A stretch of 64,000 nt of DNA from Patescibacteria group bacterium (lineage in GTDB: Bacteria > Patescibacteriota > Patescibacteriia > JAHJFT01). The notes under the pieces were generated by a model, which saw only the letters and a program-made list of their open reading frames with translations, was not told the origin of the DNA and did no database searches. Position 1 is the first letter of the stretch. Each line of letters begins with the position of its first letter. Below, in pieces: positions 2,368-48,398 of this stretch. A program made the translations under genes and the position numbers. The DNA is taken from assembly GCA_028710985.1 (NCBI GenBank), contig JAQTTB010000002.1, positions 6,888 to 70,887 on the forward strand, in the 5' to 3' direction.

Positions 2368-3180
2368 TTAAAGCGGGCTTCGGATATTTTTAAGCCCGGG
2401 ATTGGTCACGTGCGTGTATAATTGCGTAGTCCGGATATTCTGATGGCCAAGCAGGGCTTGCACATAGCGCACGTCAGTGCCATTTTCCAGCAAATGCGTG
2501 GCAAAACTGTGCCGAAGCGCGTGGAATCCGGCGGGCTTGTTAATCCCAGCGCGCTTCACGCAGTCAGAAAATACTCTTTGCGCCGTCCGGGTCGTAAGCC
2601 GGCCGCCGCGTTCGCTCAAAAACAGGTATTCATCCCCTGTTTTTCCGGCCGCTAAATTCAGCAGTTCGGCCTTAATTCGCTCCGGTATAACCGAAACCCG
2701 ATCCTTACCGCCTTTTGCCTCGCGAATATTCAGCATAAGCTCATCAAAATCCACATCGCGTACGCGCAGTCCGACAACCTCACTCACCCTCAACCCCGCG
2801 CCATACGCCAGGGCAATGAGAAGCCGGTGCTTAGCATTACGGCAGACATTCAGAATCCGCCCAATCTCATCGCGCGTCAGAACCACCGGCAATTTTTGCG
2901 ACCTCTTCACCGCCCTCACTTCAAGCAACCCGTGGCTTTTTACCACTTGCCGGTAAAAAAATTTAATCGCATTCAGCCATAAATTAATGGTTTGCGGCGA
3001 TAATCCCCTATCCCGCGCGTACAATATAAAATCCCGCACATTTTCCGAATCGGCAACCGCAAAATTATGCTTTTTGAATAAAAAATACTCCTTAATCGCC
3101 CGCCGATAACTATCAATTGTCTTGGGACTATAATTACGCACTTTAAGCTCTTTTTCCGTCTGTTCTAAATATTCTTGCAT
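2368..3180 (-). CDS. tyrosine recombinase, integron-integrase-like but with Xer-like architecture (no IntI-specific extra domain)
   Basis: 270 aa. Box I region (AYGAGLRVSEVVGLRVRDVDFD), KGGKDR, box II (HALRHSFATHLLENGTDVRYVQALLGH...LYTHV) and a C-terminal 'IRSPL' tail. The motif LPVVLTRDEIGRIL is reminiscent of IntI1. The gene is divergent from the adjacent attC-separated cassette array. Confidence 0.8.
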   Translation of the reverse strand: MQEYLEQTEKELKVRNYSPKTIDSYRRAIKEYFLFKKHNFAVADSENVRDFILYARDRGLSPQTINLWLNAIKFFYRQVVKSHGLLEVRAVKRSQKLPVVLTRDEIGRILNVCRNAKHRLLIALAYGAGLRVSEVVGLRVRDVDFDELMLNIREAKGGKDRVSVIPERIKAELLNLAAGKTGDEYLFLSERGGRLTTRTAQRVFSDCVKRAGINKPAGFHALRHSFATHLLENGTDVRYVQALLGHQNIRTTQLYTHVTNPGLKNIRSPL

Positions 3181-3473: not shown

Positions 3474-4532
3474 ATGATGTCTCAAACAACGCTGTTCGGC
3501 GAAAAGTACAAAATACACCAATTTCCAAGAACTCAATATTTGGGAAGCAAGGAGAAGCTTATCAAGTGGATTCTTGAAATTGCCCCAAAAGATATTGGAA
3601 CTGTTTTTGATGCTTTTAGTGGCACATCTGTTGTTGGTTATTATTTTAAAGATGGAGGCTATAAGGTTTATAGTAATGACTTTTTAAAATGTAACTCTTT
3701 AATTTCTAAAGCTTTAATTGAAAATCAAAATATCACTCTTGATAAAAATGATATAGATATTTTGTTAGACGAAACTACAAAAGCTGATAATCTAATCGAA
3801 AAGATTTTTACTGGAGTTTTTTTTGAAAAAGACCAAGCAAAATTTTTAGATATATTTAGAGCCAATGTTGAAAAACTAGACAACGAGTATAAAAAAGCAT
3901 TGGCTTTAGCTTTAATGAATAGATCTCTGACAAGAAAAATTACATTAGGTCATTTTGCTCACTTAAAAGCAATTGAATACAGTAAAAATCCAGATAGAAT
4001 TAAAAGAAATGCAAGTTTAGCAAAACACCTAAAAGATATTTTTCAAAGTCTTGTTCATTCATATAATCATGCAATTTTTGATAATAAAAAAAGGAACAAA
4101 GTTTTTTGCGAAGATACAATTTCTTTGCTTCCAAAACTTCAAGATGTCGATTTGGCTTATTTTGATCCACCTTATGTTGGCTGTCACCCAGACTACCAAG
4201 CATTTTATCATTTTTTAGAAACTTTTGTTCAGTACTGGAAAAATAAAGAATTTGTAAATGGCACAAAGTCATATTTTCCCAAAAAAGAAAGTGGATTTGT
4301 TCAAAAAACGGATATTGAAAAATCTTTTGAAAAACTTTTTGAAAACAGCAAACATATTCCTTATTGGTTAGTTTCTTACAATAGCAAGAGTTATCCAGAG
4401 AAAGAAAGAATGATCGAACTTATCAAAAAGCACAAAAAGGTAAAAGTGTACGAAAACGAATACTCAAATCATTATGGCGGGAAAGGAAGCCGTAAAGGAA
4501 CAGTTGAATATTTATTTTATTGCTATAACTAA
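3474..4532 (+). CDS. N6-adenine DNA methyltransferase, D12 class (Dam-like)
   Basis: N-terminal 'QYLGSKEKLIKWI' and the 'FDPPYVG' DPPY motif. Confidence 0.8.
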   Translation: MMSQTTLFGEKYKIHQFPRTQYLGSKEKLIKWILEIAPKDIGTVFDAFSGTSVVGYYFKDGGYKVYSNDFLKCNSLISKALIENQNITLDKNDIDILLDETTKADNLIEKIFTGVFFEKDQAKFLDIFRANVEKLDNEYKKALALALMNRSLTRKITLGHFAHLKAIEYSKNPDRIKRNASLAKHLKDIFQSLVHSYNHAIFDNKKRNKVFCEDTISLLPKLQDVDLAYFDPPYVGCHPDYQAFYHFLETFVQYWKNKEFVNGTKSYFPKKESGFVQKTDIEKSFEKLFENSKHIPYWLVSYNSKSYPEKERMIELIKKHKKVKVYENEYSNHYGGKGSRKGTVEYLFYCYN

Positions 4533-4538
4533 AACATT

Positions 4539-5630
4539 ATGAATCATAAAATCTACCAACAACTCAAAAAACTATACGACGCAAACGACTTTGAAAAATT
4601 ACTCAAAGATTCAAATAGTTTGCTTTTTCTGAAAATTCGTTCAATCACAAGAAAAGCCTTGCTTGTTGAATTTGCAGAAAAAATTGACATCGATCCCAAT
4701 CAGGGTACCAACGATTTAATTGAACAAATCGTAAATAACCCAAAAACTGAAAAAGCTATTGATAAATTTATCAATGACAAATTCCAAAATGAAAGAAAGG
4801 AAAGAAAAATCTATGAAGATAAACTCATTTCGGAATTATATAAACTGAAAATTTTCGATTGGGGTGGTCTGTATCAAAACAATCTTGAACGAACGATAGT
4901 TGATAACTACATCAAAAAAATTAAAAACTTTGATGTTTTAATGGACAAAATTGATAACGAAATACACGAAAGTTTAAAGGGATATGTTTTGTGTTCTTGG
5001 TTTAATCACTGGACTTCAATTTTGATCGAAGATATTTTTAAGGAACACAAGAGAGTGTTACCAACGATTGGGTTAATCAAAAAAGTTGATTTTTTTGTCG
5101 ATCAAATACCTTTCGACCTTAAAGTAACTTATTTTCCGGACGGATTCATGGCTTTAAAACGAAAAGAAAAAGGACTAAAACCGGAACTTACTGAACTCAA
5201 ACAAATCGCCAAAGCAAATAAAATCAAATTTGACTCAACACAAAAAAATAAATCTCTCCTTTCTGAACTGTTAATCAGACTATCCGAGAGTCATCTTGAA
5301 CCAGCTAAAAAAGCGATAACAGAATTTCACAAAACGAGATGGAAAATAATTGAAGAAGCAATGGAAAATAAAAAAGGGCTCATTAAATGGCTTTATGAGG
5401 AACAAGGCGAAAGGCGTTTTGATTCTGCTAATCGTTTATTTTTAGTATTGATAGAAAAAAATAATCTTGAGGAAAGCTGGAAACTCAAACGCAATATTGA
5501 TTTTCTAAAAGAAAGTGTCGGGTCTTATCTTGATAAGTTTAAAATCAACGATAATTTAGAGATCAATTTTGACTGGAAAGATGAAAAATACACATCTGTT
5601 TCAGATGCCTTGTTTATAGTGAAAGAATAA
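4539..5630 (+). CDS. hypothetical protein; candidate cognate restriction endonuclease of the adjacent Dam-like MTase
   Basis: 363-aa ORF lying 6 bp downstream of the MTase in the same cassette. Possible PD-(D/E)xK-like 'VDQIPFDLKV'. No firm motif recognised. Confidence 0.35.
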   Translation: MNHKIYQQLKKLYDANDFEKLLKDSNSLLFLKIRSITRKALLVEFAEKIDIDPNQGTNDLIEQIVNNPKTEKAIDKFINDKFQNERKERKIYEDKLISELYKLKIFDWGGLYQNNLERTIVDNYIKKIKNFDVLMDKIDNEIHESLKGYVLCSWFNHWTSILIEDIFKEHKRVLPTIGLIKKVDFFVDQIPFDLKVTYFPDGFMALKRKEKGLKPELTELKQIAKANKIKFDSTQKNKSLLSELLIRLSESHLEPAKKAITEFHKTRWKIIEEAMENKKGLIKWLYEEQGERRFDSANRLFLVLIEKNNLEESWKLKRNIDFLKESVGSYLDKFKINDNLEINFDWKDEKYTSVSDALFIVKE

Positions 5631-5635
5631 AGATT

Positions 5636-6451
5636 ATGGAAGAATTTATAACTAAATGGCAAACATTGATTGGCTCCGCACTTGGTCCTTTTCTTGCGGT
5701 TATTCTTTCAGCTATAGGTTTTTGGATAAAATCAATCATAGAAGGTAAGAAAGAGCGAAAAGAATTTTTGCGACGAATAGAAATTGGAATTACTCGAAGT
5801 CTTGATGATACATTCAAAACTCGAATAAAACTCCAATATTTTGTATCAAGATTGAGAACACTAATTACAGACATCAGAAAAATAACAGACATTAAACATT
5901 TTTCTCTTGAAACCATAAACTACCCAACCATACGCGATATTTATAAAGACGTCGATTTAGCAAATTTCAAGGTTAAAAGCTACTATCTACACAACATGCT
6001 TTTATGGGCTGACGCAGGAATCAAAGAAACAAATGAAACAGTAATCAGTCTAAAAAATGACTTTGCTGAATTGCAGAGAAAAAACGAACTACATATTATC
6101 TTAATGAGACAAAACCAAACACCAAATCCCGCCCAACAAAGAGCAGAATACGCCGACAATCTTGAATCATTTGCAAACGCCATAGATGAATTTATAACAA
6201 AATTCATGAAACAGGGCGTCGAGATATTGACTCAAATTAAAATTTATAACGAACATTTACGGAAAAAACATGGTTATTGGTTTTTATGGAAATGTGAAGG
6301 AACTAAATTTAAGTATTTTCGCAATAAAACCGAACAGAAAAATTTCTCAAGAAATCTTGACTCAATGGAAAGAATTGACAAAATTATCCAGAAAGAAGTT
6401 GGTGATGCTATCAAAGACGCAGAAGCCAGAGCCTCGAAACTACAACAATAA
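5636..6451 (+). CDS. hypothetical membrane-anchored coiled-coil protein
   Basis: 271-aa ORF with an N-terminal TM segment, in the same AT-rich cassette. Confidence 0.45.
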   Translation: MEEFITKWQTLIGSALGPFLAVILSAIGFWIKSIIEGKKERKEFLRRIEIGITRSLDDTFKTRIKLQYFVSRLRTLITDIRKITDIKHFSLETINYPTIRDIYKDVDLANFKVKSYYLHNMLLWADAGIKETNETVISLKNDFAELQRKNELHIILMRQNQTPNPAQQRAEYADNLESFANAIDEFITKFMKQGVEILTQIKIYNEHLRKKHGYWFLWKCEGTKFKYFRNKTEQKNFSRNLDSMERIDKIIQKEVGDAIKDAEARASKLQQ

Positions 6452-6524: not shown

Positions 6525-6577
6525 TGTTTTGGATTTTGGGCATTCACCCCTAACCCCTCTGCCCAAAATCCAAAACG
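6525..6577 (+). other. 17-bp-stem hairpin in the cassette-1 3' region
   Basis: TGTTTTGGATTTTGGGCA / TGCCCAAAATCCAAAACG with a 17-nt loop. ATTCACCCCT is repeated at 6469 and 6542. Confidence 0.5.
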
Positions 6578-6645
6578 GAAAAAGAAATTTGAAAATTTTT
6601 TAAAACAAGTTTTCTTATCAGAAAACAAAAGAAAAGGAATACATC

Positions 6646-6743
6646 AGCTAACAGCGTATATCTGGTTCGCGCTTGCCTAACGGCAAATGCTCACCCATAT
6701 TGCTCCCTGCGGTCGCAACATCAGATATACGCGAACGTTGTGC
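6646..6743 (+). repeat. attC-like site 1 (R'' AGCTAAC, L'' GCGTATATCTG, L' CAGATATACGC, R' GTTGTGC)
   Basis: Perfect 11-bp L''/L' inverted repeat. R'' is complementary to the cassette start at 3295. Confidence 0.6.
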
Positions 6744-7275: not shown

Positions 7276-7423
7276 GTATAACAAAGTATATTTGGCTCTG
7301 CTCCTCTCCCGCCGTTGGCGGGTTCGTCGCTCCGCCCAAATTGGCTTCCGTTCCGGCGGTGTGCTTTCGCACAATTAAACCGCCTCCACTCCAGCCAACT
7401 TCATATATACTTAAACGTTAAAT
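7276..7423 (+). repeat. attC-like site 2 (R'' GTATAAC, R' GTTAAAT)
   Basis: Imperfect palindrome TATAACAAAGTATAT...ATATATACTTAAACGTTAAAT. Centre contains TCGCTCCGCCCAAATTGG and a GTGTGCTTTCGCACA hairpin. Confidence 0.5.
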
Positions 7424-7506: not shown

Positions 7507-8343
7507 ATGAAGATAAAAATTTTAGGTTCGGGTGCATGGGAAGGAATTCCAGTTCCATTCTGTAAATGTAAAATTTGCGAATCAGCAAAGAAACCTAATT
7601 CAAAAGATAACAGAACAAGACCGCAAATTTCAATTGAATCGGATGAAGGGCAATTTTTGATAGAAATAAGTCCTGACATTCGCATTCAATCCACAAAATT
7701 TAATTTACCAAATATTAGCAATTTCCTAATAAGTCACTGGCATTTTGACCACATGTATGGCTTATTAGAACTTCATGCATGGATAGAATTTGTTTTAGGA
7801 CAAAAATCAAAATTATTTTGCTCTCAAAAGACAAAAGAATGGCTCGACCAGAGTTTTGGACATATACCAAAAGAAATAATTGTAGTCAAGCCATTTGAAA
7901 AATTTGATTTATTTGGCACAAAAATTACTCCGATACCTCTTTATCACATGAGTGGGCGAGATAATAATACAAAAGAAAACGAATTAGATAATGCGTATGG
8001 TTTTCTTTTAGAAAAAAATGGTAAAAAGGCAATTTATCTCGCCGATTACTATAAATTGCCAAATAAATCTTTAGAACTTGTAAAAGATTCCGATATTATT
8101 ATTGCTGATGGAACTTATCTTTTTGAAGAATCTTTTCCAGACAAACCAGAGCAAAATAATTTAAAAACTGACCCAGACCATTTGCATGGAAAACAAATTC
8201 TTGATTTTGTTAGCGGATTGAATGCTAAGAAAGTGATTTTTCATAGTATTTCACATTTAACAGAAAAATCACATGAGGAACTTCAAAAATTGCTCCCAAA
8301 AAATATGTTTATTTCTTATGATGGAATGGAACTGGAATTATAA
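7507..8343 (+). CDS. MBL-fold metallo-hydrolase
   Basis: HWHFDH motif; 278 aa; single-gene cassette. Confidence 0.7.
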   Translation: MKIKILGSGAWEGIPVPFCKCKICESAKKPNSKDNRTRPQISIESDEGQFLIEISPDIRIQSTKFNLPNISNFLISHWHFDHMYGLLELHAWIEFVLGQKSKLFCSQKTKEWLDQSFGHIPKEIIVVKPFEKFDLFGTKITPIPLYHMSGRDNNTKENELDNAYGFLLEKNGKKAIYLADYYKLPNKSLELVKDSDIIIADGTYLFEESFPDKPEQNNLKTDPDHLHGKQILDFVSGLNAKKVIFHSISHLTEKSHEELQKLLPKNMFISYDGMELEL

Positions 8344-8443
8344 ACGCACTGCCTTTTCCCACCCTTAAAATAGCAATCGCTACTCCTTCGCTCCATTTCA
8401 TTCCGCTCGGGCACGTTGCACTCTCCTCACTTCGTTCGTCGGC

Positions 8444-8538
8444 GGATTTAACAGGGCTTAAAGGGTTCGCTCGTTACACTTCGCTCTCCCAAATTTTTTG
8501 TGTGCGACAAAAAACTTCCCTTAAGCCCGATGTTATGT
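8444..8538 (+). repeat. attC-like site 3 (R'' GGATTTAAC, L'' AGGGCTTAAAGGG, L' CCCTTAAGCCC, R' GTTATGT)
   Basis: R'' is the exact reverse complement of the 9-mer GTTAAATCC that starts this cassette. L'' carries one extra A relative to L', as for an extrahelical base. Confidence 0.7.
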
Positions 8539-8564: not shown

Positions 8565-8954
8565 ATGAACATAAAAAAAACTATTTTTAAAACCATTCTT
8601 ATAAATATTCTACTAGTTACAATTACAGCTATTATCTTAAGTTCGGTGTATTTACTTTCAGCACAAAAGACCGATCCAAAAAATTACTTACATATGGAAT
8701 ATTTAGATGACGAATTGCAGAATGGTCATTACATATGTCCGCATTTATGGGACAGATACTCCTATGCATGTGGCACAGGGGACTTAATTTATACTTTTGT
8801 TGTAGGTACTGTTGGTATAATTTTCCTTGCGTACATTCCACTTGGTCCAACTGCAGAATATGCGATTTTGAATTATGCAATTCTTTTGATAATTTTTATC
8901 ACTGTTTATATTGTGTCCAAAAATAGTACAAAAACATCACATAACAGCGTATAG
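8565..8954 (+). CDS. hypothetical small membrane protein (cassette-encoded)
   Basis: 129 aa with 2-3 predicted TM segments. The stop codon lies inside the attC R''/L'' region. Confidence 0.5.
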   Translation: MNIKKTIFKTILINILLVTITAIILSSVYLLSAQKTDPKNYLHMEYLDDELQNGHYICPHLWDRYSYACGTGDLIYTFVVGTVGIIFLAYIPLGPTAEYAILNYAILLIIFITVYIVSKNSTKTSHNSV

Positions 8955-9015
8955 CAGACTACGCTTCGCTCCGTCCAAATTGCTATGCAACTTCTGCTAT
9001 ACGTAAACGTTAGGC
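8938..9015 (+). repeat. attC-like site 4 (R'' CACATAAC, L'' AGCGTATAGCAG, L' CTGCTATACGT, R' GTTAGGC)
   Basis: R'' is the exact reverse complement of GTTATGTG at 8532. Centre contains TCGCTCCGTCCAAATTGC. Confidence 0.7.
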
Positions 9016-9036
9016 GAAATAACAAAAATTACCAAT

Positions 9037-9378
9037 ATGATATATATAATCTGGTTAGTCTTACTTAGCCTCTTTGTTTTTTCTTTCCTTGTTCCCAAAT
9101 TTCCTATCTGGATTCCTGTTTTAGCCTATTTATTGGTAGTTGGCGTGAGAGTTAAAGAAAAATATGGGAATTACTTAGATTGGATTGAAAAAAACCACCG
9201 CGATGAAGAGCGAGCGATTGATGCAAATTTGCATGATTTCGAAATTAAAGGGTTGGCCACAAGCGGAATGCGACTAAAGCAGGAAAATCATATTAAAAAA
9301 GACTTCGAGTATGAACGAAAAAAACAAAAAAGACAAAGAGACACAGAGCTAATCGATTGCTTATTCATAAAAAAGTAA
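9037..9378 (+). CDS. hypothetical small membrane protein (cassette-encoded)
   Basis: 113 aa with a hydrophobic N-terminus and a K/E-rich tail. Confidence 0.5.
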   Translation: MIYIIWLVLLSLFVFSFLVPKFPIWIPVLAYLLVVGVRVKEKYGNYLDWIEKNHRDEERAIDANLHDFEIKGLATSGMRLKQENHIKKDFEYERKKQKRQRDTELIDCLFIKK

Positions 9379-9390
9379 TTTTTGTTACAT

Positions 9391-9824
9391 CGCCTAACAC
9401 GGCATATCTGACTTCGCTTAAAAAACAGATAATTTTATTTACTAATATGCTACAATTATGTACGTACCCGCATGGATTTTCTTCGTCATTATGATAGCTA
9501 TGGCAGCTGCAACTATAGTAATTGATGATCACATAAAAAAGCAGAATAACAAACTAGAAGATCGAATTGATGATATCGAAAAAAGAATTAATGGTATTGA
9601 GGATTTTGTTGGTTTAGACGAAACGGCCCTAAAAGTACATAAGGAGTTGAAGATGGAGCAAGAGATGGATGAAATAACAAGGAATTCTTTTAATAAACAA
9701 GCTGGAAGGAATGTAAAATGAACATAGGATTATCTATTTTTTTAGCTCCGCCCATATTCCGCGCACACATTTTAATTAATAAATTGGGAGTGCGCGAAAC
9801 ATCGGATATGCCGAAACGTTATGT
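9391..9824 (+). repeat. attC-like site 5, enlarged to about 430 bp (R'' CGCCTAAC, L'' CGGCATATC at 9391-9411; L' GATATGCCG, R' GTTATGTG at 9804-9825)
   Basis: R'' is the exact reverse complement of GTTAGGCG at 9009. L''/L' match 9/9 although they lie 390 bp apart. The conserved centre (AGCTCCGCCCATATTCC plus a CGCGCAC..GTGCGCG hairpin) sits in the 3' half. Confidence 0.5.
9458..9721 (+). CDS. hypothetical 87-aa TM/coiled-coil protein carried on an insertion inside attC 5
   Basis: ORF lies between imperfect inverted repeats TAAAAAACAGATAAT (9419-9433) and ATTATCTATTTTTTTA (9729-9744). Confidence 0.4.
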   Translation: MYVPAWIFFVIMIAMAAATIVIDDHIKKQNNKLEDRIDDIEKRINGIEDFVGLDETALKVHKELKMEQEMDEITRNSFNKQAGRNVK

Positions 9825-9855
9825 GAAGTAATAATAATTCACTATTGCCCTTAAA

Positions 9856-10245
9856 ATGGAAAAAAAGATTAACAAATTCATCTATTGGACGCCGAGAATA
9901 TTATCAATAATGTTCATTTTATTCTTGATGCTGTTTTCTTTGGACATCTTTGACATGGATTTGAATTTTTGTGAAACTCTCGTTGGTCTGTTTATGCATA
10001 ATATCCCCGCATTATTCCTGTTGATCATTTTAATAATTTCCTGGAAATATGAAATTGTCGGAGGAATCGCCTTTATTCTCGCGGGGCTACTCTATATCCT
10101 GTTGCTGGCAATGAATCCCGTATTTGGATGGTATATGCTGTCATGGCCGGTAACAATTTCCGGTCCGGCATTTTTAATAGGAACATTATTTTTGGTTGGC
10201 TGGTTTTTAAAAAGAAAATCCAATAAAAATATTACTAAAATTTAA
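9856..10245 (+). CDS. hypothetical polytopic membrane protein (last cassette-like gene)
   Basis: 129 aa with 4 predicted TM helices; follows R' GTTATGTG at 9818. Confidence 0.5.
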   Translation: MEKKINKFIYWTPRILSIMFILFLMLFSLDIFDMDLNFCETLVGLFMHNIPALFLLIILIISWKYEIVGGIAFILAGLLYILLLAMNPVFGWYMLSWPVTISGPAFLIGTLFLVGWFLKRKSNKNITKI

Positions 10246-10256
10246 CTAAAAAAATT

Positions 10257-10736
10257 ATGAAAAAAACATTTTTTATGTTTGCCGCATGCCTGGGATTTAT
10301 CATAATTTTATCCGGCTGCCAAACTTATTCTCCGGATATATCAACCGAATCACCCGGCATAGAAGACGCCCTTCAGCCGGTCGGCCTGGCAAATCCGGCA
10401 TCGGAAAATTGCGTACAAAAAGGCGGCACCTTGGAAATGCGAACGAACAAAAACGGCGAATACGGAGTTTGCCTTTTTGAAGACAACCGCCAATGCGAAG
10501 AATGGGCGCTTTTCCGCGGCAATTGTCCGGTTGGCGGTTTAAAAATCACGGGCTATGACAACGACGCCGAGATATATTGCGCCATCACCGGCGGACAGGT
10601 TGAAGGCGTGGGAACCGAAACTCCGATGTGCAAAAGAATCGACGGTACATATTGCAACGCCCAATCCAACCTGGATGGCGAATGCCCGGACCCGAATGAT
10701 CCGAATCCCAACGCCGGAAATGTGGAAGCGCCGTAA
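10257..10736 (+). CDS. DUF333-type lipoprotein (two Cys-rich repeats)
   Basis: Lipobox ILSGC. Duplicated 'NC...GG...C' modules (ENCVQKGGTLE...; EIYCAITGGQVE...). Confidence 0.55.
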   Translation: MKKTFFMFAACLGFIIILSGCQTYSPDISTESPGIEDALQPVGLANPASENCVQKGGTLEMRTNKNGEYGVCLFEDNRQCEEWALFRGNCPVGGLKITGYDNDAEIYCAITGGQVEGVGTETPMCKRIDGTYCNAQSNLDGECPDPNDPNPNAGNVEAP

Positions 10737-39996: not shown

Positions 39997-40260
39997 AGTT
40001 TTTATTGAATTTTGGTTTATTATATAGAAACTCGATGAGAAACTCGACGACTTTTCATATCTTATTTCACCCACACAGTATAGCACATATAGGATAATTA
40101 ATCAAGAGCCAACTAAAAAGCGCCATTTCACAATGGTGCCTCTTAGTTGGCTCCGAGCGGCGCGTGAACTTAGAACCGTTATTCTGAACGGCTGGCACTC
40201 CTACGAAATGGACGCGGCCGTCAAAATGCTCCGCCATGAATCACCGTTCGATATGATAGA

Positions 40261-43200
40261 TTAAGTATTTGTAGGTTCTTTCTCGGCCGTTAAAGATTCT
40301 ACTTCCTTCCAAAAATCCTTTTCTTCTTTTTTTGGATTAGACACTTTAAGTCCTTTAATTCGCTCTACAACAAAAGCTTTATTCTCACCCTCAGGCCAGT
40401 CCTTAAGGCGGGCTAACAAATCTTTAAAATCTTTTTCATAAGCTGGATAGGTTGGTTTCACTTCATCTAAAATTCCAAGAGAAGTCTGCAAGGAGTTCTT
40501 ATCACGATCCGGTCTCAACATATCAAACAAAACATAAACGAAATCTTTAACGGGAGTCTCCTGCATAATTCCTGTTAGGCTAGATACAGTTTTTAAGGCA
40601 AAATGATGAGCTGAAGTTAATATTTTTCCTGGTTGTCTGAGCCAATCCAGAATTTCTTTACCAATCTCTCGTTTTTTCTCTTCTCCCAAAAAGTCAGACT
40701 TGATTAAAAAGTTGAAGCCGGCTTCTTGAGACGCAAGTGCATCAGATTTTATAAGATTTTTAATTTGAGTTACTGCCTGATCTTTCAAATCTACTGGATC
40801 ATTTTTGCTTAATTGAATCGGCAGATAATCATAAACTGCAATTTGTTCTCCAAAAGGGATAGACGTTACTTTAGCCAATAAAGATTTTACAACCATTTGT
40901 CGATCCGGCAGATTATCGCCCAAACTCTTTATAAAATTCAAACTATTTGCACCCTTCTGGTTAATAATATTTTTAAGCAACTCAATCTTTTTATCCTTAT
41001 CTGCTTTTTTGTATACAATTTCTAATAACACATCATCACTCATACTACGAGATAGCAATGGTTTGAAGTAGGTAGATAGAAATTTTTCGGCAGTTTCTTT
41101 TTTCCAATAATCAAATACTAAACCAATCTTAGCGGCTCCAGCGTTTTGGAAGTAACCATTAATCTGAGCTACGAGTTCATTCTGTTGTGCTTCTGGCACA
41201 TAGAAGCTAATCCAACGTAAATTATTAACTAAGCCCGTGCGATTATCCCAAGCCCCAATACTATTAAACGCCTGGATAAAATTCTTTGTAAGCTGAATTT
41301 TAGTGCCGTCATCAACAATCTTAAACTGATCCTGAAATTCACTAAATATATCCCCGCAAGTAGCGAATAAAGTTTCTTTTTCTGCGCGGTAGTCTGGACT
41401 CTCGGTAGTCTCTTTATTTATTACTTCAGTAATTTTTTGCAGAATTATATTAAACTTGTTCTTCTCTGAAATGTATTCCTTAAACTGCTTAATTATTGTA
41501 ATCTGTCCCGATAGACTATCTCGGTTGAAATTAGCGATAAATTTGTCAAACGCCTGGGGAGAAATAAAGGTCGTCTGTTCTTCAAGTGTGCCAAATAGCG
41601 ATATAATATCGAAATTTGTTGAAAAATTCTCATCAATAAACTTAACGATCTGAATTTTATCTTCATCTGCTATTAATGAAGCGTTTTGTTTTAAGTTCGT
41701 AAGAATATCTTTTAATATTGACCCCATATTTGGCTTACGAACCTCTTCTGTTCCCACGGCCAAAACATAGCGCTTAATTAAGGGTGCGCGGAACTGGACA
41801 TCTAGTTCCTGCTTCGTAATAAGGTCAGAAAAAACTAAGTTAGTTTGGAGCTGAGTGAAAAATTGCCATAGATCAGCATCTAAAACACGAGCAAGGGATT
41901 CGTAATATACTTTAGTCGAAGACGAAATCCCCAATTCGTGGAAAGCCTCTAAGTGAGTAGTAAATATTTTAAGCAATATATCTCTCTGGCTCCTATACTC
42001 ACGCAAGAGATGACGGATAAAATCAACTAATGATCCTTTATTGGTTTCCGCCGAGGCAAGTTCCTTAAATTTATCTTTGTTGCCCTCGGCCAAACTCAGT
42101 ATCATTTCCTCTGAATTGTTGAGAGATTGATAAATGGTCGGTTCTTTGAAATAGATAAACGGGCGGGCGTTAGAAACGGTAATACGGCTCGTATTTAACA
42201 TGAAGTTACGTAAATCAGCAGAATCTTTATCTTTTAGAATGTTTTCTGGTTCAAACCATTTATCCTTTAATCGATGATAAGCGGGTGTAAATTTTTGTCT
42301 AAGCACCAATACTTTTGCTAAATAAGCGATATTGTCTTTAATCCTTTGCCATACCTCCGTTTTAGAAGCTAAGACTAATGCTGCTATTAAATTATTTATA
42401 AACTGTTTAATCTCACGAGGATTGTTAGAAAAAGCATTGCTAATCACATAAACAATATCCTCTGAATCTTGACCTTGGAGTAAACTTTTTATTTCGCCGG
42501 TATCATTAATCAGTTTTTTAATATATGCGTGAAGATCGGCTTCAATAAATTCGGGCGTCCAAATTACAACATTAAATAGCTTTCTAAGATATTCTGAAGG
42601 GTCAAAATCTTCATCATCCTGACCACCATAAAAACTTTTGATTTGGCTAATAATGGCTTCTGAATCGCAGGGAACTATAAAAACAAGTCCAGCAACACCG
42701 GCCGGATCAAGGAACGTTTTGATAGCAGAAAGAATTTTTATTGCCGCATCACCCTGAACACGATCAATGTTATCAAAAACTATTACAACTTTTTTATTAA
42801 CTTTTTGAAGTATCAGTCTAAACAGAGCTTCAAATTGCTCCGGGGAGTTTAACCGTTCCTCTTTTTCAACCCTTGTTTTAATAGAGGCAAGTGGATTTAA
42901 CGAAGATAAAAACTTTTCGACCGAGCGTTCCCAAACTTTCTCCAGTAAAGGCTTAAAAAAGAGAGCTAGAACAGAGAATGAAGCTACAACGGCCGCAAAA
43001 TCTTTAATTGTTTGAATAATCAGATTATTATTTTTGAAAATCAAATTTAAAATTACCCATCCGATTACTAAAATCAGAGATAAGACTAAAAGCCAGTTTG
43101 TTTTTAACAACAACCAAACTTTTTTAAGCCATCCGGCAGAGCTTACTTGCATTTCGGCCGTCGTTATTTCGCAACTTTCCTCTGTTGATTTATAAAGAGG

Positions 43201-43536
43201 GTCAAGTATTTTTTTATCCTCGGGCGAAAGTTGTTTTTGACTAATCAGAAAGTTTACTAATTCGATCAAAAAAATTCTGCGTAACGAATCTTCCTGATAT
43301 TTCCATGCATCAAAAACAAACATCGGGCTTTGTAGATCGTGACGTATCATTTCAATGATTGTACTTTTGCCCGTACCCCACCTACTAAAAAGTCCGATGG
43401 TATGAACACAAGAATCGTTTTCTAGTATCTCTTTCATAGCTGGAGCAACGTTCTCATGATAAAAGCCAAAAATACCATCTTGACCATTACCAAGCGGGAC
43501 ATCTTTCAAAAATTTAAATTTTAGTTCTTCGGGCAT
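40261..43536 (-). CDS. KAP-family P-loop NTPase (1091 aa, TM helices inserted into the P-loop domain)
   Basis: Walker A GLFSRWGTGKST; two hydrophobic helices after about residue 130; hhhhDNID Walker B-like (VIVFDNIDR). Confidence 0.7.
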   Translation of the reverse strand: MPEELKFKFLKDVPLGNGQDGIFGFYHENVAPAMKEILENDSCVHTIGLFSRWGTGKSTIIEMIRHDLQSPMFVFDAWKYQEDSLRRIFLIELVNFLISQKQLSPEDKKILDPLYKSTEESCEITTAEMQVSSAGWLKKVWLLLKTNWLLVLSLILVIGWVILNLIFKNNNLIIQTIKDFAAVVASFSVLALFFKPLLEKVWERSVEKFLSSLNPLASIKTRVEKEERLNSPEQFEALFRLILQKVNKKVVIVFDNIDRVQGDAAIKILSAIKTFLDPAGVAGLVFIVPCDSEAIISQIKSFYGGQDDEDFDPSEYLRKLFNVVIWTPEFIEADLHAYIKKLINDTGEIKSLLQGQDSEDIVYVISNAFSNNPREIKQFINNLIAALVLASKTEVWQRIKDNIAYLAKVLVLRQKFTPAYHRLKDKWFEPENILKDKDSADLRNFMLNTSRITVSNARPFIYFKEPTIYQSLNNSEEMILSLAEGNKDKFKELASAETNKGSLVDFIRHLLREYRSQRDILLKIFTTHLEAFHELGISSSTKVYYESLARVLDADLWQFFTQLQTNLVFSDLITKQELDVQFRAPLIKRYVLAVGTEEVRKPNMGSILKDILTNLKQNASLIADEDKIQIVKFIDENFSTNFDIISLFGTLEEQTTFISPQAFDKFIANFNRDSLSGQITIIKQFKEYISEKNKFNIILQKITEVINKETTESPDYRAEKETLFATCGDIFSEFQDQFKIVDDGTKIQLTKNFIQAFNSIGAWDNRTGLVNNLRWISFYVPEAQQNELVAQINGYFQNAGAAKIGLVFDYWKKETAEKFLSTYFKPLLSRSMSDDVLLEIVYKKADKDKKIELLKNIINQKGANSLNFIKSLGDNLPDRQMVVKSLLAKVTSIPFGEQIAVYDYLPIQLSKNDPVDLKDQAVTQIKNLIKSDALASQEAGFNFLIKSDFLGEEKKREIGKEILDWLRQPGKILTSAHHFALKTVSSLTGIMQETPVKDFVYVLFDMLRPDRDKNSLQTSLGILDEVKPTYPAYEKDFKDLLARLKDWPEGENKAFVVERIKGLKVSNPKKEEKDFWKEVESLTAEKEPTNT

Positions 43537-43603
43537 ATTTTTACTTTTTCACTACTTCTTCTACTAAAGATTTTATTTTCCAGATTTGGTCTAGTTACTT
43601 TGT

Positions 43604-44773
43604 TTACCGATTACCTTTTGCTCGATTGTGTGTCTTGCAAAGCATCTGGCAGTTTTTTGCTGAAGTTGCACCTCCCTTGCTCCAGGCTGCTACATGGTCT
43701 GCGTCCATTTCGCTAAAACTCCAAATCTTACTCTTGTTAGCATCATGCCCAATGGCACAATGCGGGCAGTTTGATTCGTCTTTTTTCTCTGCCTTGACGG
43801 TTTGTGTTGTATAAACCGTCTTTTTGGTTGCTTCATCAAAAACTCGGACTTCAAGTAATTTTGTGTCAATGGAACCACCAAGAATATACTCAAAAATACC
43901 TTTGCGATTTTTAACATACGGATCAGCATAGAGCTTCTGTACCTCGGCTGATACTTTGGCTGGATTGTACGATTTTTTATGGTGTTCCTCATAAAGTCGC
44001 CCCCACTCAAGACCGCGCATCTCGCTTTCAACATTAGTAAACACACTAGAAACCCAATCGATCACGCTGTTGAAATATTTTTTTAATTCATTAATATTTT
44101 TTTCAAAACGATGACGACTCATATAATCGCCGATATTACCTTTGCTTACCCAATCCAGCGCACATTCTAAAAATTCCTGCCGGTTAGCGCTACCGGATAC
44201 ATACGCGCTCCATTTTTGAATGTTGGCGTTTTGGCTATTACTAAATTCCTCCTTGCCGAGCGTTACAAACGGCCCGGAATACACCGCATTAAGTAATTCC
44301 TGACCATTAAGTGGAACACCGGCAATATTAATTGTTTTGAACCACTCTTTTATCTCGCTTTCTTTCCCTTCGCATTCGTAAATAAGTAAAGTAGTTTTTA
44401 AAATTTTACCCTGTTTGTCTTTTGCCATACCGCTAAAATATTGCTCCATGCCGTTTTCGTCTTTGATAGCAAATTTGTCAGTTATAAACCGCCCAAGACT
44501 AGTGATGCGTTGCTGGCCGTCTAAAACCTCTAAATTGTTGTCGCTTACTTTGTTAAAATAGATCAATCCTATCGGGTACTCTTTGAGGACTGATTCAATG
44601 ACGGCCATTTCTTTTTTACCACCATCAGAAGCATAAATATAATTGCGTTGATACTCCGGTTGAATGGTCAATTTACCAGACAAACCGAACAAACCCTTAC
44701 CTTCAAGTTCGTTATAGACAAACCCATCGCAAATATCTTTAACAGTAATATTAATTTTTAAAGTTGTTTTCAT
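43604..44773 (-). CDS. DUF262 (ParB-like) plus HNH nuclease; GmrSD/BrxU-like type IV restriction-type enzyme
   Basis: DUF262 motifs IQPEYQRNY and [11 protein letters not shown]-terminal HNH: CPHC...[12 protein letters not shown]...[15 protein letters not shown]. Confidence 0.7.
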
Positions 44774-45966
44774 ATTATTTTTTTCTTATGTTTAATAAGC
44801 ACTCTTTGATAAACTTTTTCCAATAAACCATCTCGAATAATTACTCCACTTGCGTTCAAGTCATAGGTTCCTGTTTTCCCGAATTTATCTAAATACGCCT
44901 GTTTACATTCTGCGGATGTATACACTTTTGTTTTTTGTTTATATAAATCTTCATTCTCACACATTCCAACAATCTTAAACTGCTCGGGGCTATATTTATC
45001 AAGAATACTGACCGGTACTCCCATTACGCCGCTGTAATCGCTCGGGATATTTTTTACTAACGACACTTCTATCGCGTTATAATTTTCATATTTCTCAAAC
45101 GGTTTTTTCATTACGAACTTTATCACCTCTGCCTTGGTCATGAGTGGGAGTGGCTGATGACGACGCCCATGGTCAAGATTGGTAAACCAGCGAACACCCT
45201 GCACTCTAGTGACATATACTTTTTTTCCGCTTTCATTTGTTTTTATTTCACGAACCTGCTCTAAATTGGCAATGTTTTCGGGTATCTCAAAAAACATTGC
45301 ACCGGCATTAACTTTGTAATTATTACCTAACCAAACTTTATTCTCTTTAAGTAATGGGAATATTTCTTTGTAGGTAATCGCGTTCAGGTTGCCGATGATC
45401 AAAAACTTTTTATCATACTTAACAAGTTGTTTTATGTACTCGCGAAATAGACTGAACGGCGGATTAGTTACCACAATGTCAGATTGTTTCAATAGATTAA
45501 TGGACTCATCGCTGCGAAAGTCGCCGTCGTCCTTTAGCGGCATCCATTCGTTATGTTTGTTTGCCTTTAACTGCTTAGCAATGTCTTTCAAGTTGAACTC
45601 GCCATCGCCGTCTATATCGCGCACTTCGTTAATAATGAACTTGTTGGCATTTATCTTTGGACGGCCTTTTGATTTAGTAAGAGTTTTGTCATCGCCAAAT
45701 AATTCCAGTTGCGTATTGGCAACGGGCGAGGGTTTGTAACTAGTGGTGATAAGCTGCTTCAATCCAAGCTTGTTGAAATTAAGCACGAAATAGCGGAAAA
45801 AATTGCTCTCAAACGGGTCGTCGCAGTTACAATACACCACCTTGCCTCGAAATACGTTAGGATCGTATTCCAAATACGCCTCAATCTCTTTCTGAATATC
45901 GCTGTACTGAGTATAAAACTCGTCATTCTTTACTTTTTTTGCGTTTGCAAGATTTTTGTTTGCCAT
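44770..45966 (-). CDS. N6-adenine DNA methyltransferase (NPPF motif; EcoRI-methylase-like family)
   Basis: N-terminal KNDEFYTQ and motif IV VVTNPPF. Overlaps the downstream DUF262-HNH gene by 4 bp. Confidence 0.65.
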
Positions 45967-45970
45967 AAAA

Positions 45971-46675
45971 TTATTTTTCGTTATCTAGGGCAAGCTTCAG
46001 TAAAAATATCGTCTCGGCTCTGAGTTTCGACTTCACCCAAGCTTTCTGCTTCTCGTCTAGAAGTTCGCCCATACCGGAAAGAATATTGCGGTCACTGACT
46101 TTCTCCAAAGAGTTAATGCATTTTTGTAAAAAATCTTTATAAGACGTTCCTGTTCGGCCCTCTATAATTTCTTTATTCACCGGCCAGTTATTATGCAAAA
46201 AATAATACACGTCAAAAATATCACGATTAGTCTTACCGATGCGTTCATACATCGCACAAAGTTTATGAGCCAACATATCTTCCTTCACCATGACTTTCAT
46301 AGAGATGCCAAGGTATGCCTTTACTTCATACCTCGATCCAAAATTCCGGCGATTTATTTCCACCTTAATATTTTGAGCACCGATTTCCTTATCATCGTAA
46401 GAAAGTAAAAATAAAAGATTGAACCTTTTCGTTTGAGCTTCTTTAATGGTGCCGTAGGCACTTAAAATCTTTTGAATTTGTTCAAAGACATAATCTTCCT
46501 TACTCTCTTCCAACAGATCAAAATCCAAGTCTACTGAAAAACGATTGAGATCATAAAAAAGAAAGGCGGCTGTACCTCCTTTGAATCCCAAAAGCGGTCC
46601 AATAGTTGAATCAGTGTAAATGTCTTTTAAAATTCTGACGAGAATATTTTTGTGTTTTACTGTATCAAGTGACAT
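45971..46675 (-). CDS. AbiEii/DUF1814 nucleotidyltransferase toxin
   Basis: GFKGGTAAFLFYDLNRFSVDLDFD motif. Confidence 0.75.
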   Translation of the reverse strand: MSLDTVKHKNILVRILKDIYTDSTIGPLLGFKGGTAAFLFYDLNRFSVDLDFDLLEESKEDYVFEQIQKILSAYGTIKEAQTKRFNLLFLLSYDDKEIGAQNIKVEINRRNFGSRYEVKAYLGISMKVMVKEDMLAHKLCAMYERIGKTNRDIFDVYYFLHNNWPVNKEIIEGRTGTSYKDFLQKCINSLEKVSDRNILSGMGELLDEKQKAWVKSKLRAETIFLLKLALDNEK

Positions 46676-46680
46676 AGAAT

Positions 46681-47313
46681 TTATTTGGGATTATTTATTA
46701 AAGACTCGTGATATTTTTTGACCATTCTCTCCATTCGTTTATTACCTCCGTAGATAGGCAAGATTAAGTTAACTTTGTCCCAATCCAAAACTGACAAATT
46801 ATCAAAATGATAATCCGTGTTTAAATAAACAACATCTAAAAATGCTCTTTCAGTCGAAGCAATACTGTAATTATCTTTTATTTCGATGCCGGCATTGTTA
46901 GTGAGAATTTCGTCTTTAATCCTTTTGAAAGCAACTACTTGCCCATCGCATTCAATTTCTTTATTTTGGTACGAAGCAACAAAAATTTTAGAGTAGTGTT
47001 GAAAGGTTACACCGGCCGATCCGAGGACGGTTTCAAAACTGACGTAAGAAGGCGTAAATATTTTGGTAGCTAACTCATATTTGTCGTAATTTTTGTCCTT
47101 GGCATAAAGACCGCGACGTATATGGTAAAGATTATTGTGTTTAGTATAGTAATTAACCCTTGAACCAGCGGTAAGCTTGTCAATTCCTCCCCAAAGCAAA
47201 ATAAGGTCTTTGAAAGAAAAAACCGTTTTGCTTGATCTCAATATTTCGTTTAAAAAGCCTTTTTCCATATGTTTGAAGTTAAATATAAGACCCTGCCTTA
47301 TGTTCAACTCCAA
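46681..47313 (-). CDS. AbiEi-like antitoxin / transcriptional regulator
   Basis: Directly upstream of AbiEii; N-terminal wHTH-like region with IRRGLYA; 210 aa. Confidence 0.65.
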   Translation of the reverse strand: MELNIRQGLIFNFKHMEKGFLNEILRSSKTVFSFKDLILLWGGIDKLTAGSRVNYYTKHNNLYHIRRGLYAKDKNYDKYELATKIFTPSYVSFETVLGSAGVTFQHYSKIFVASYQNKEIECDGQVVAFKRIKDEILTNNAGIEIKDNYSIASTERAFLDVVYLNTDYHFDNLSVLDWDKVNLILPIYGGNKRMERMVKKYHESLINNPK

Positions 47314-47367
47314 TTATATGATATAATCAATAAGAGTGCAAGAGCTAAGGGGATAAACAAAACAACT

Positions 47368-47445
47368 GATTAATCACTGTCTTATAATATAATAAGACAT
47401 GTAATTTTTTAGAAATAAAGAAGCCTTATTATATTATAAGGCTTG
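47368..47445. promoter_or_regulatory. two related palindromes in the divergent promoter region (candidate AbiEi operators)
   Basis: GTCTTATAATATAATAAGAC and AAGCCTTATTATATTATAAGGCTT sharing the core CTTATwATATwATAAG. Confidence 0.4.
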
Positions 47446-47453
47446 AATAACTT

Positions 47454-48398
47454 ATGAGAAAACAGCTTAAAGCAATAATTAATAAGCTAAACAAACGGCC
47501 AATATCTTCTTTGACCGGCGATGAATTTGATGTGTATTTTGAACACCGAATGGATAACTTGATATGTGATAAAAAGGTCCTCACTAAAAATGAGCTTGTC
47601 TATCTCCTTTCCGAAACCGGTCCCGGTAATCGACGCATTGATCCGCGATTAGTATTAAAGCTTGTCGATCAAAACATTCTAGTTTCTTCCATACTTGGGG
47701 CTTTACCTGAAATGACAAAATTAAAAGGCCAAAAAGAAAAAGTGGATAAATATATACTCGACCATAAAAGCTCTAAGGAAACTAAACAATCAATTATTAA
47801 ATTGATTGGGAGTTATCTAAAAAATGTAAAAATGATTTCAGATGATCCCTTTATAATCGAAGCCACATTTAAGAATATGCCAATCTCCTGCCTGATAAAA
47901 AACGGTGGCTGGATATTTCCGGATTCAGAATTATTTTCTTTTCTAAGCGCAGTTCAAAAACAAAAAAGGTTTCCAATAGTAATTGCTAAAAAGATATCGG
48001 GTATTCTTTTTCCGGTATTTAAGGGATTGTCGATTTTAGGTTTAAATCTATACAAAACCCTTTTGCCAGAGGAGGGAGAAAAGTTAATAACTAGCTCTAT
48101 TTATAAACCAAAAGAGAGTTTTCTATCAGAGCTGAAGTATAACGGTCAGTTTCAATTTTTAACAAGAGAATACGTTGAAAATATCCAAGACGAATATTGG
48201 AATGGCGATCCGCTAAAAAACTTCTTTGAGAATGTCTTGCTCGGAAATATATCTACTTATTACGAGAATTTCTCAAATTTGAAAATAAATATTACCGATA
48301 ATTTTGCCGATACTGTATCTCAGTTCAGAAAAAACAAAACGACAAAAAATTTACTTGAAATGTATAAAACGCAAGAAAAGATTATTAGCGCTAAATAA
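47454..48398 (+). CDS. hypothetical protein (314 aa, AT-rich, defence-island context)
   Basis: ORF only; no recognised motif. Confidence 0.45.
   Translation: MRKQLKAIINKLNKRPISSLTGDEFDVYFEHRMDNLICDKKVLTKNELVYLLSETGPGNRRIDPRLVLKLVDQNILVSSILGALPEMTKLKGQKEKVDKYILDHKSSKETKQSIIKLIGSYLKNVKMISDDPFIIEATFKNMPISCLIKNGGWIFPDSELFSFLSAVQKQKRFPIVIAKKISGILFPVFKGLSILGLNLYKTLLPEEGEKLITSSIYKPKESFLSELKYNGQFQFLTREYVENIQDEYWNGDPLKNFFENVLLGNISTYYENFSNLKINITDNFADTVSQFRKNKTTKNLLEMYKTQEKIISAK

Follow-up and report, generated by a model that had tools for sequence, protein, structure and literature searches.

We analysed a window of 64,000 nucleotides (nt) from a Patescibacteria group bacterium (assembly GCA_028710985.1, contig JAQTTB010000002.1, positions 6,888 to 70,887 of the forward strand), in which a cassette array closes with an attC recombination site of 433 nt (9392-9824) that has a small open reading frame (ORF), ORF87, inside it. 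The array is divergent from the gene of a tyrosine recombinase of 270 amino acids (2368-3180, minus strand), and its GC content is 31-40%, against about 50% elsewhere in the window. The whole 64 kb was scanned on both strands for the pattern AAC-N-stem...stem-N3-5-GTT. The results showed exactly five sites, all on the plus (array) strand and including 9392-9824; four other matches, on the minus strand, were long-range chance matches with atypical spacers. All five sites share one layout (AAC, one base, L'' ... L', 3-5 bases, GTT), so that the spacer is asymmetric in each, with 1 nt on the 5' side and 3-5 nt on the 3' side; canonical extrahelical L-box bases were not identified. The first four plus-strand sites belong to cassette 1 (6646-6743; R'' AGCTAAC, R' GTTGTGC), cassette 2 (7276-7423; three-way-junction fold, core motif GCTCCGCCCAAATT), cassette 3 (8446-8538; R'' GGATTTAAC, complementary at 9/9 positions to the cassette start GTTAAATCC) and cassette 4 (8939-9015), whose R' GTTAGGC (9009-9015) sets the start of cassette 5. 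Cassette 5 (9010-9818, plus strand) would form one mobile unit, in which ORF113 (9037-9378) is followed by the giant attC with ORF87, the last recognisable attC of the array. The window thus holds a recombinase gene and, divergent from it, an array of attC-bounded cassettes.

The recombinase matched Pfam Phage_integrase (1.7e-43) and passed the NCBIfam model XerA_Arch / "integron integrase" with 232 bits (cutoff 220), while it stayed below the cutoff of TIGR02249 (229 vs 265), with a match split in two stretches. The best solved structure was VchIntIA (2a3v, 1.6e-47), relative to which about 43 residues are absent between query positions 172 and 199. According to Messier and Roy (2001), as cited in PMC9668308, an IntI-specific additional domain around patch III is defining for integron integrases; the gap relative to VchIntIA and the TIGR02249 score below cutoff indicate that the recombinase here does not have it. 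Judged by sequence, the recombinase is nearest to integron integrases though it has no IntI-specific extra domain. In layout the platform works like an integron, and we use the name "integron-like" for it, its activity being a predicted one. The recombinase family, uniform at about 270 amino acids, is found widely among Patescibacteria, and one relative, 57% identical, comes from an Altiarchaeales genome. Of the 35 loci whose upstream sequence reaches 3 kb or more, 29 have an attC-type array next to the recombinase.

The 5' half of the giant attC (9390-9411, plus strand) is composed of R'' TCGCCTAAC (9390-9398), the spacer A (9399) and L'' CGGCATATCTGA (9400-9411), and the 3' half (9802-9824) of L' TCGGATATGCCG (9802-9813), the spacer AAAC (9814-9817) and R' GTTATGT (9818-9824), with the presumed crossover point between G9818 and T9819. 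Both R boxes fit the consensus RYYYAAC / GTTRRRY (GCCTAAC at 9392-9398, GTTATGT at 9818-9824), and L'' and L' pair by 11 of 12 Watson-Crick pairs plus one T-G wobble. The start of cassette 5, GTTAGGCGA (9009-9017), is complementary to R'' TCGCCTAAC at 9/9 positions; the same full complementarity was found in cassette 3 (GTTAAATCC/GGATTTAAC) and cassette 4 (GTTATGTGA/TCACATAAC), which argues that the cassette beginning at 9010 has its end marked by the R'' at 9390. The sole L'-R' matching this R'' lies 400 nt downstream. Between the halves, on the plus strand, follow the left arm of a closing stem (9416-9438), ORF87 (9458-9721, co-oriented with the array), the right arm of the stem (9724-9746), a junction motif TCCGCCCATATT (9747-9758; subfamily consensus TCCRCCCAWATT) and a hairpin, H2 (about 9759-9796; CCGCGCAC ... 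GTGCGCG, with the stem GCGCAC/GTGCGC). About 390 nt separate L'' from L', whereas the published range for the variable terminal structure (VTS) of attC sites is 20-100 nt (PMC4889954), so the site is far from compact. An earlier note on this DNA, made from its letters alone, had listed the boxes, the core motif, the GTGCGC hairpin, ORF87 and the repeat, and all of them are present to within a few bases; its claim that both halves belong to one recombination site is borne out by the complementarity of R'' to the cassette start, the L''/L' pairing and the layout common to the five sites. Rfam contains no attC family.

For comparison we used 80 loci (designated by L and a number) that encode relatives of the recombinase with 55-62% identity, nearly all from Patescibacteria genomes. 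On the upstream divergent (array) strand, 343 kb in all, 78 attC-like sites were found, compared with 6 on the other strand and 1 + 5 downstream as controls. Compact intact attCs with an identical L box occur in L073, L066, L018, L029, L044 and L011, and the subfamily plan reads R'' - A - CGGCATATCTGG - H1 - TCCRCCCAWATT - H2 - CWTC - RGATATGCCG - AAAC - GTTRRRY. The bottom strand of each intact relative folds into a three-way junction made of the R/L stem, the hairpin H1, TCCRCCCAWATT and H2. H1 always stands in the same position in L073, L066, L018, L029, L011, L083, L078 and L008, its stem measuring 7-11 bp and its loop 3-24 nt, and its longer examples have A/T-rich stems (e.g., GGGAAAATCAC...GTGATTTTCCC in L083). 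Comparison with these sites, which the earlier note had proposed as a check, showed that the inverted repeat of the window coincides exactly with the H1 stem, between CTGACTTC and TCCGCCCATATT, and that ORF87 occupies the loop. This loop measures 295 nt, and its closing stem is 18-23 bp long and A/T-rich. As for the fold of the enlarged site, the predicted minimum-energy and centroid structures of the full 441 nt pair L''/L', the closing stem and H2 on both strands, and the R box pairs only on the bottom strand. When the loop was trimmed, the window site was predicted to adopt the three-way junction of the family (z = -5.6).

ORF87 has 87 codons and an N-terminal hydrophobic stretch (residues ~5-22), a putative membrane helix by sequence reading alone, which is followed by a conserved FVGLDE..LK segment. 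Family searches with ORF87 gave no Pfam match, no significant PHROG match and only weak, sub-threshold NCBIfam matches; by these three databases ORF87 is without a DEDD transposase, reverse transcriptase or intron-type family. A word-indexed search of 5.8 billion protein clusters returned no close relatives beyond its own samples, and the one named copy is annotated as coming from a "Patescibacteria group bacterium" metagenome-assembled genome. An exhaustive HMMER search of 1.84 billion cluster representatives returned three homologues with 56%, 46% and 40% identity, and the family alignment has 15 invariant columns. The first of them lies in L084, a Joint Genome Institute (JGI) contig from an unrelated metagenome with different neighbouring genes, and it is found inside the same attC structure, since L084 keeps the L'' region, the closing stem (15 bp, perfect), the junction motif, the H2 hairpin and L'. 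Judged by eye from the pairwise alignment, identity between the two sites is about 90% in the attC halves, the closing stem and H2, compared with about 68% in the ORF at the nucleotide level; for the ORF protein an identity of 54% was also obtained. H2 is otherwise unrelated between subfamily members, and its sharing with L084 therefore suggests that frame and gene descend together and do not stem from two independent insertions. Within L084 (3086-3160 and 3552-3572), a segment of about 66 nt with a small hairpin of its own stands between TCGCCTAAC and the L'' box, and R' reads ATT; this copy of the ORF87 module appears, from its letters, to be inactivated.

The homologues with 46% and 40% identity (P0004 and P0005), and a further one in L095 from a metagenome scan, belong to tightly packed groups of small genes where neither an attC nor a flanking repeat is present, which suggests that the ORF87 gene predates its place inside an attC. 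In L086 (400-1900) and L095 (1-900) these homologues outside arrays stand in runs of small genes, each gene after a near-identical leader AAATAAATYTATG, possibly an unusual translation-start context from a phage or other mobile element. The earlier note had proposed to look for the inserted segment, there taken as about 310 bp, in other contexts. We searched for the 326-bp segment by BLAST of 83 loci, by protein searches, in JGI metagenomes (scanned by family alignment) and in viral contigs (scanned twice, by protein family and by repeat pattern), and only L084/L094 carried the module, the L084 occurrence being in the same attC frame.

Sites of this kind were not confined to ORF87, as at least 12 further giant attCs with unrelated genes occur in related arrays. 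A stringent scan of all loci, with 11 of 12 L-box pairs as the minimum, returned 56 compact sites on the array strands and 3 elsewhere, and 13 giant sites (376-1045 nt) with family-typical R''/R', all of which were on the array strand and none on the control strands; two further giant sites, with R' ATT, are both in L084. AttC-internal cargo accounts for roughly 15-20% of the detectable sites in the arrays sampled here. The cargo is unrelated from site to site: a Trypsin_2 peptidase, a DpnI-like protein, a Trypco2 protein and several small membrane proteins, once two genes and once a segment with no clear ORF. With 74-252 codons the nested genes are full-length, and they show conservation between genomes; the nested ORFs are co-oriented with the array in 11 of 11 cases. 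Closing stems in the nine giant sites measured were 13-25 bp long, mostly perfect, around loops of 229-758 nt, and L026d has by eye a perfect one of 21 bp; these stems are longer than those of compact sites, and their repeats are unrelated in sequence, with no shared terminal sequence. The site at L012 724-1145 has no clear closing stem. At L012 2786-3161 (minus strand) the nested Trypco2 gene stands in the H2 arm instead of H1, which suggests that either arm can be expanded.

The L-box helix of 11 giant sites (12 bp) was 100% paired, and in 7 of the 12 pairs both partners have changed; this level was reached in 0 of 500 shuffles, and no slid register came close. Giant sites with the rare L boxes CGGCATAGC, TGTTGTATC, CTGTGTATC, GCGGGCTAG and CGGGTTAGC also pair perfectly with their distal partners. 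The distal R'' is complementary to the cassette start at 9/9 positions in four other giant sites and at 8/9 in a fifth. The orthologous sites L026b and L061 share their attC frame and the beginning of what is nested in it. Their closing stems, in one and the same register, pair at 23/27 and 25/27 positions although at 10 positions both partners differ. About 30 nt lie between the preceding R' and R'' in L061, so that the whole cargo there is inside the attC. We take these compensatory changes as evidence that pairing of the L helix and of the closing stems is under selection. The nested content at L026 3274-3838 and L061 2452-3089 (minus strand) has no convincing ORF, is relatively GC-rich, has two successive closing stems and begins with a conserved hairpin ACCGCCTCAACCTTT..GGTATATTGGCGGT; an Rfam search of this content gave no match, and these attCs may carry a non-coding RNA.

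Taken together, these results make it probable that 9392-9824 is one functional-looking attC whose H1 loop is expanded to hold ORF87. The recombinase would bind the R-box/L-box stem of a single-stranded three-way junction, and the long A/T-rich stem that closes the ORF87 loop would bring R'', L'', L' and R' together on folding; since this stem is present, the four boxes should still meet when the strand folds. Cassette 5 would then have two cargo genes, ORF113 in the ordinary position and ORF87 inside the recombination site, and the latter would be inseparable from its attC by cassette recombination. Excision of cassette 5 would give a circle joining ...GATATGCCGAAACG to TTAGGCGAAATAAC... and a deleted array joining ...CTGCTATACGTAAACG to TTATGTGAAGTAAT.... 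We infer that the recombinase recombines such giant sites, and the gene probably entered a pre-existing H1 loop by an illegitimate insertion event. A single insertion into an exposed hairpin loop would be the simplest course; the data agree less well with two coordinated deletions or with a family of repeat-bounded mobile units. The earlier note had offered as its second option an unusually long attC variable region that encodes a protein, and this is essentially right, with the addition that the architecture recurs. A wider idea, that attC-internal cargo is a regular, selected architecture of Patescibacteria integron-like arrays and may record the birth of cassettes, we put forward tentatively, as possible but the less probable case. 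A gene landing in the loop of an attC arm would be mobile at once, being bracketed by a working site, and later rearrangement could convert such units into ordinary cassettes with the gene followed by the attC.

Several observations weigh against an expanded, working attC. The full 441-nt fold gains no stability over shuffled sequence (z = -0.4 and +0.6), its energy being dominated by the coding loop, and only its topology is informative. No other L box is as common in the subfamily as CGGCATATC, which makes the L''/L' match here weaker proof than it appears. The giant sites were chosen by L-box complementarity, so that their percentage paired is partly circular, and it is covariation and strand asymmetry that count as independent evidence. 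The L084 copy shows decay, with R' ATT for GTT, a spacer ACCC and the insertion near L''. A probe with H2 did not find an empty-site allele of this attC frame, its matches being chance A/T-rich ones, and the source-sample contigs encoding ORF87, ORF113 and ORF129 all had the same arrangement, with no excised circle or empty-array variant among them. In published work, recombination is reported to fall by as much as 4 logs in replicative conditions when the VTS is long, though not when the DNA is delivered single-stranded (PMC8946536). Given this penalty the giant site may be poorly active, and a strong closing stem could plausibly offset it.

We also considered that the closing stem acts mainly in RNA, on the stability, processing or translation of the ORF87 message, and that its position in an attC is incidental. 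It is known that attC hairpins in transcripts affect cassette translation (PMC8876359), all nested ORFs are co-oriented with their arrays, and the closing stems bracket the ORFs tightly, at times overlapping the stop codon. A role in RNA, however, fails to explain why the stems always stand at the position of an attC arm and why the same stems surround the content of L026b and L061, which has no clear ORF. No promoter-like or terminator-like signal stands out either, as a scan of 8900-10300 for both gave nothing above the shuffled expectation. We regard this explanation as unlikely when it stands by itself, and it is compatible with an expanded H1 loop, not exclusive of it.

The earlier note had favoured a miniature element bounded by terminal inverted repeats (TIRs) and inserted into the attC. 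Such a non-autonomous element would carry ORF87, might target attC hairpins, and would have left the GCT on its two sides as a target duplication. The segment is indeed bounded by an imperfect inverted repeat of 18-23 nt, GCT stands on both sides, and GCT...AGC(T) borders recur in several other giant sites. A repeat tool placed the inverted repeat at 9416-9438 / 9724-9746 (23 nt, 83% complementary), that is, on the two arms that the earlier note had called the left and right TIR, with a core of 18 bp and 2 mismatches at 9416-9433 / 9729-9746. The repeat reaches outward to take in GCT/AGC, which makes the apparent 3-bp direct repeat (GCT) ambiguous and no evidence for a target-site duplication. 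Intact attCs carry two boxes flanking H1 (GGTTCGCT... / ...CTTCGCTCYCCCAAATT, e.g., the attC of cassette 2 in the window and L008), GCT is part of the boxes TTCGCT ... GCTCC already present in them, and the right-hand AGCT is a palindrome; repeat and "duplication" are thus indistinguishable from each other, and the GCT requires no transposition. The same two boxes in intact attCs ruled out an 8-bp "target duplication" in L026a (CGCTCGCT).

The position of the repeat, which is that of the H1 stem in intact sites, likewise speaks against a TIR-bounded element, as does the lack of a transposase. The searches of 5.8 and 1.84 billion clusters, JGI metagenomes and viral contigs found no copy of the segment outside an attC. 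A miniature inverted-repeat transposable element should occur as multiple same-ended copies in different contexts, whereas the only other copy, in L084, shares the entire attC frame including H2. The closing repeats of giant sites (13-25 bp) have no common terminal sequence, and the ORF87 homologues outside arrays have no such repeats. We therefore consider transposition of a TIR-bounded element improbable, to about the same degree as a role in RNA alone.

A last explanation is that an ORF113 cassette and an ORF87 cassette were fused by decay, the first attC having lost its 3' half and the second its 5' half, which would leave an inert relic. Cassette fusion by partial loss of attC is well documented (PMC8876359), CGGCATATC is the commonest L box in these arrays, the site is the last of its array, and 9720-9737 (GAACATAGGATTATCTAT) looks like a degenerate R''-L''. 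Little probability remains for it, no more than for the two preceding explanations. Two independent deletions would be needed, with borders such that a long complementary stem remains; L084 does not conserve the look-alike at 9720-9737; and it is the distal R'' to which the cassette start is complementary. Giant sites whose L boxes are rare also pair perfectly with distal partners, compensatory change is seen in closing stems, and the ORF is less conserved than the attC parts. The earlier note had named as its own refutation an ordinary ORF87 cassette with a complete attC, and this was not found: there is no conserved R''/L'' partner next to the 3' half. Two nearer boxes were also ruled out, CAGATAAT (9426-9433) as a closer L' because no GTT follows it, and GAACATAGGATTATCT (9720-9735) as a closer R''-L'' because it is not conserved in L084.

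Compared with known systems, the sites described here resemble integron attCs in their imperfect palindrome R''-L''...L'-R' with conserved AAC/GTT triplets, in the asymmetric spacer between R and L boxes, in their place at the 3' end of each cassette of a co-oriented array divergent from a tyrosine recombinase, and in the complementarity of the cassette start to R''. They differ from integron attCs in that the stretch from L'' to L' holds a whole gene and reaches about 1000 nt in relatives, in that their VTS branches into two arms at a junction that has a conserved motif, and in that the adjacent recombinase has no IntI-specific domain. Cassette 5 shares with fused cassettes such as blaGES-1/aacA4 and aadA1/blaOXA-9 two complete genes between one pair of crossover points; in those, however, the upstream attC is truncated and the downstream one complete and compact, whereas here the halves of one attC bracket the second gene. 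IS1111-attC elements and group IIC-attC introns also place extra DNA in or next to an attC and exploit its hairpin, but they carry a gene for a transposase, or for a reverse transcriptase along with a ribozyme, and keep the same ends from copy to copy, while the cargo here is an ordinary small gene, different at each site, with no shared ends. Short ORFs in attCs of normal size, involved in translation reinitiation (PMC8876359), are likewise coding sequence within an attC, but they have few codons in a site of about 60-140 nt, unlike the full-length genes found here. Synthetic attCs embedded in coding sequences (PMC7439510) show similarly that attC function depends on structure and leaves sequence content free; these are engineered and are the converse case, a site inside a gene. 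In the literature searched, which was incomplete, we found no published description of full genes inside attC arms.

The attC has been treated as a compact hairpin, with mobilised genes assumed to lie outside it, and both detection software and cassette definitions build this in; the site described here is four times longer than the textbook range and has a complete conserved gene in a side arm. If the recombinase uses such sites, the structural tolerance of attC recombination would be much wider than thought, cassette cargo could reside in two topologically different places, and capture of a gene by an attC arm would be a candidate first step in cassette formation. If attC-internal cargo is a true architecture, it would offer a testable route to the long-standing question of cassette origin, and current integron-finding tools would systematically miss or mis-delimit such cassettes. 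IntegronFinder has a default size limit of 200 bp, which would exclude the 433-nt site. The findings also draw attention to a large group of Patescibacteria arrays, integron-like and so far little studied, with a recombinase that is without the integrase-defining domain.

Other features of the window were noted along the array. Cassette 1 (genes at 3474-6451, plus strand, ending at the attC 6646-6743) is about 3.4 kb long and has three genes with no attC between them, for a D12-class adenine methyltransferase and two proteins without a known family; it may be a restriction-modification or defence module. The gene of cassette 3 (7507-8343, plus strand) encodes a metallo-beta-lactamase-fold protein that precomputed annotation assigns to the anti-Pycsar Apyc1 family (PF23023), and its product is a possible anti-defence protein carried as a cassette in a Patescibacteria array. 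A conserved palindromic non-coding element, TTTTGGGCATTCACCCCTAACCCCTCTGCCCAAAATCCAAAAC, lies at 6525-6590 just upstream of an attC, and five other loci, unrelated ones, have its core on their array strand (L006, L032 (twice), L033, L041 and L084). A second conserved non-coding segment (8343-8445; core GGCACGTTGCACTCT at 8410-8424) stands directly upstream of an attC R'' and is common to the arrays of two other genomes (L008 and L028); it is neither part of a hairpin nor an ORF. Far from the array, a second low-GC island (40000-48000; 34-38% vs about 50%) contains a minus-strand ORF of 1091 codons.

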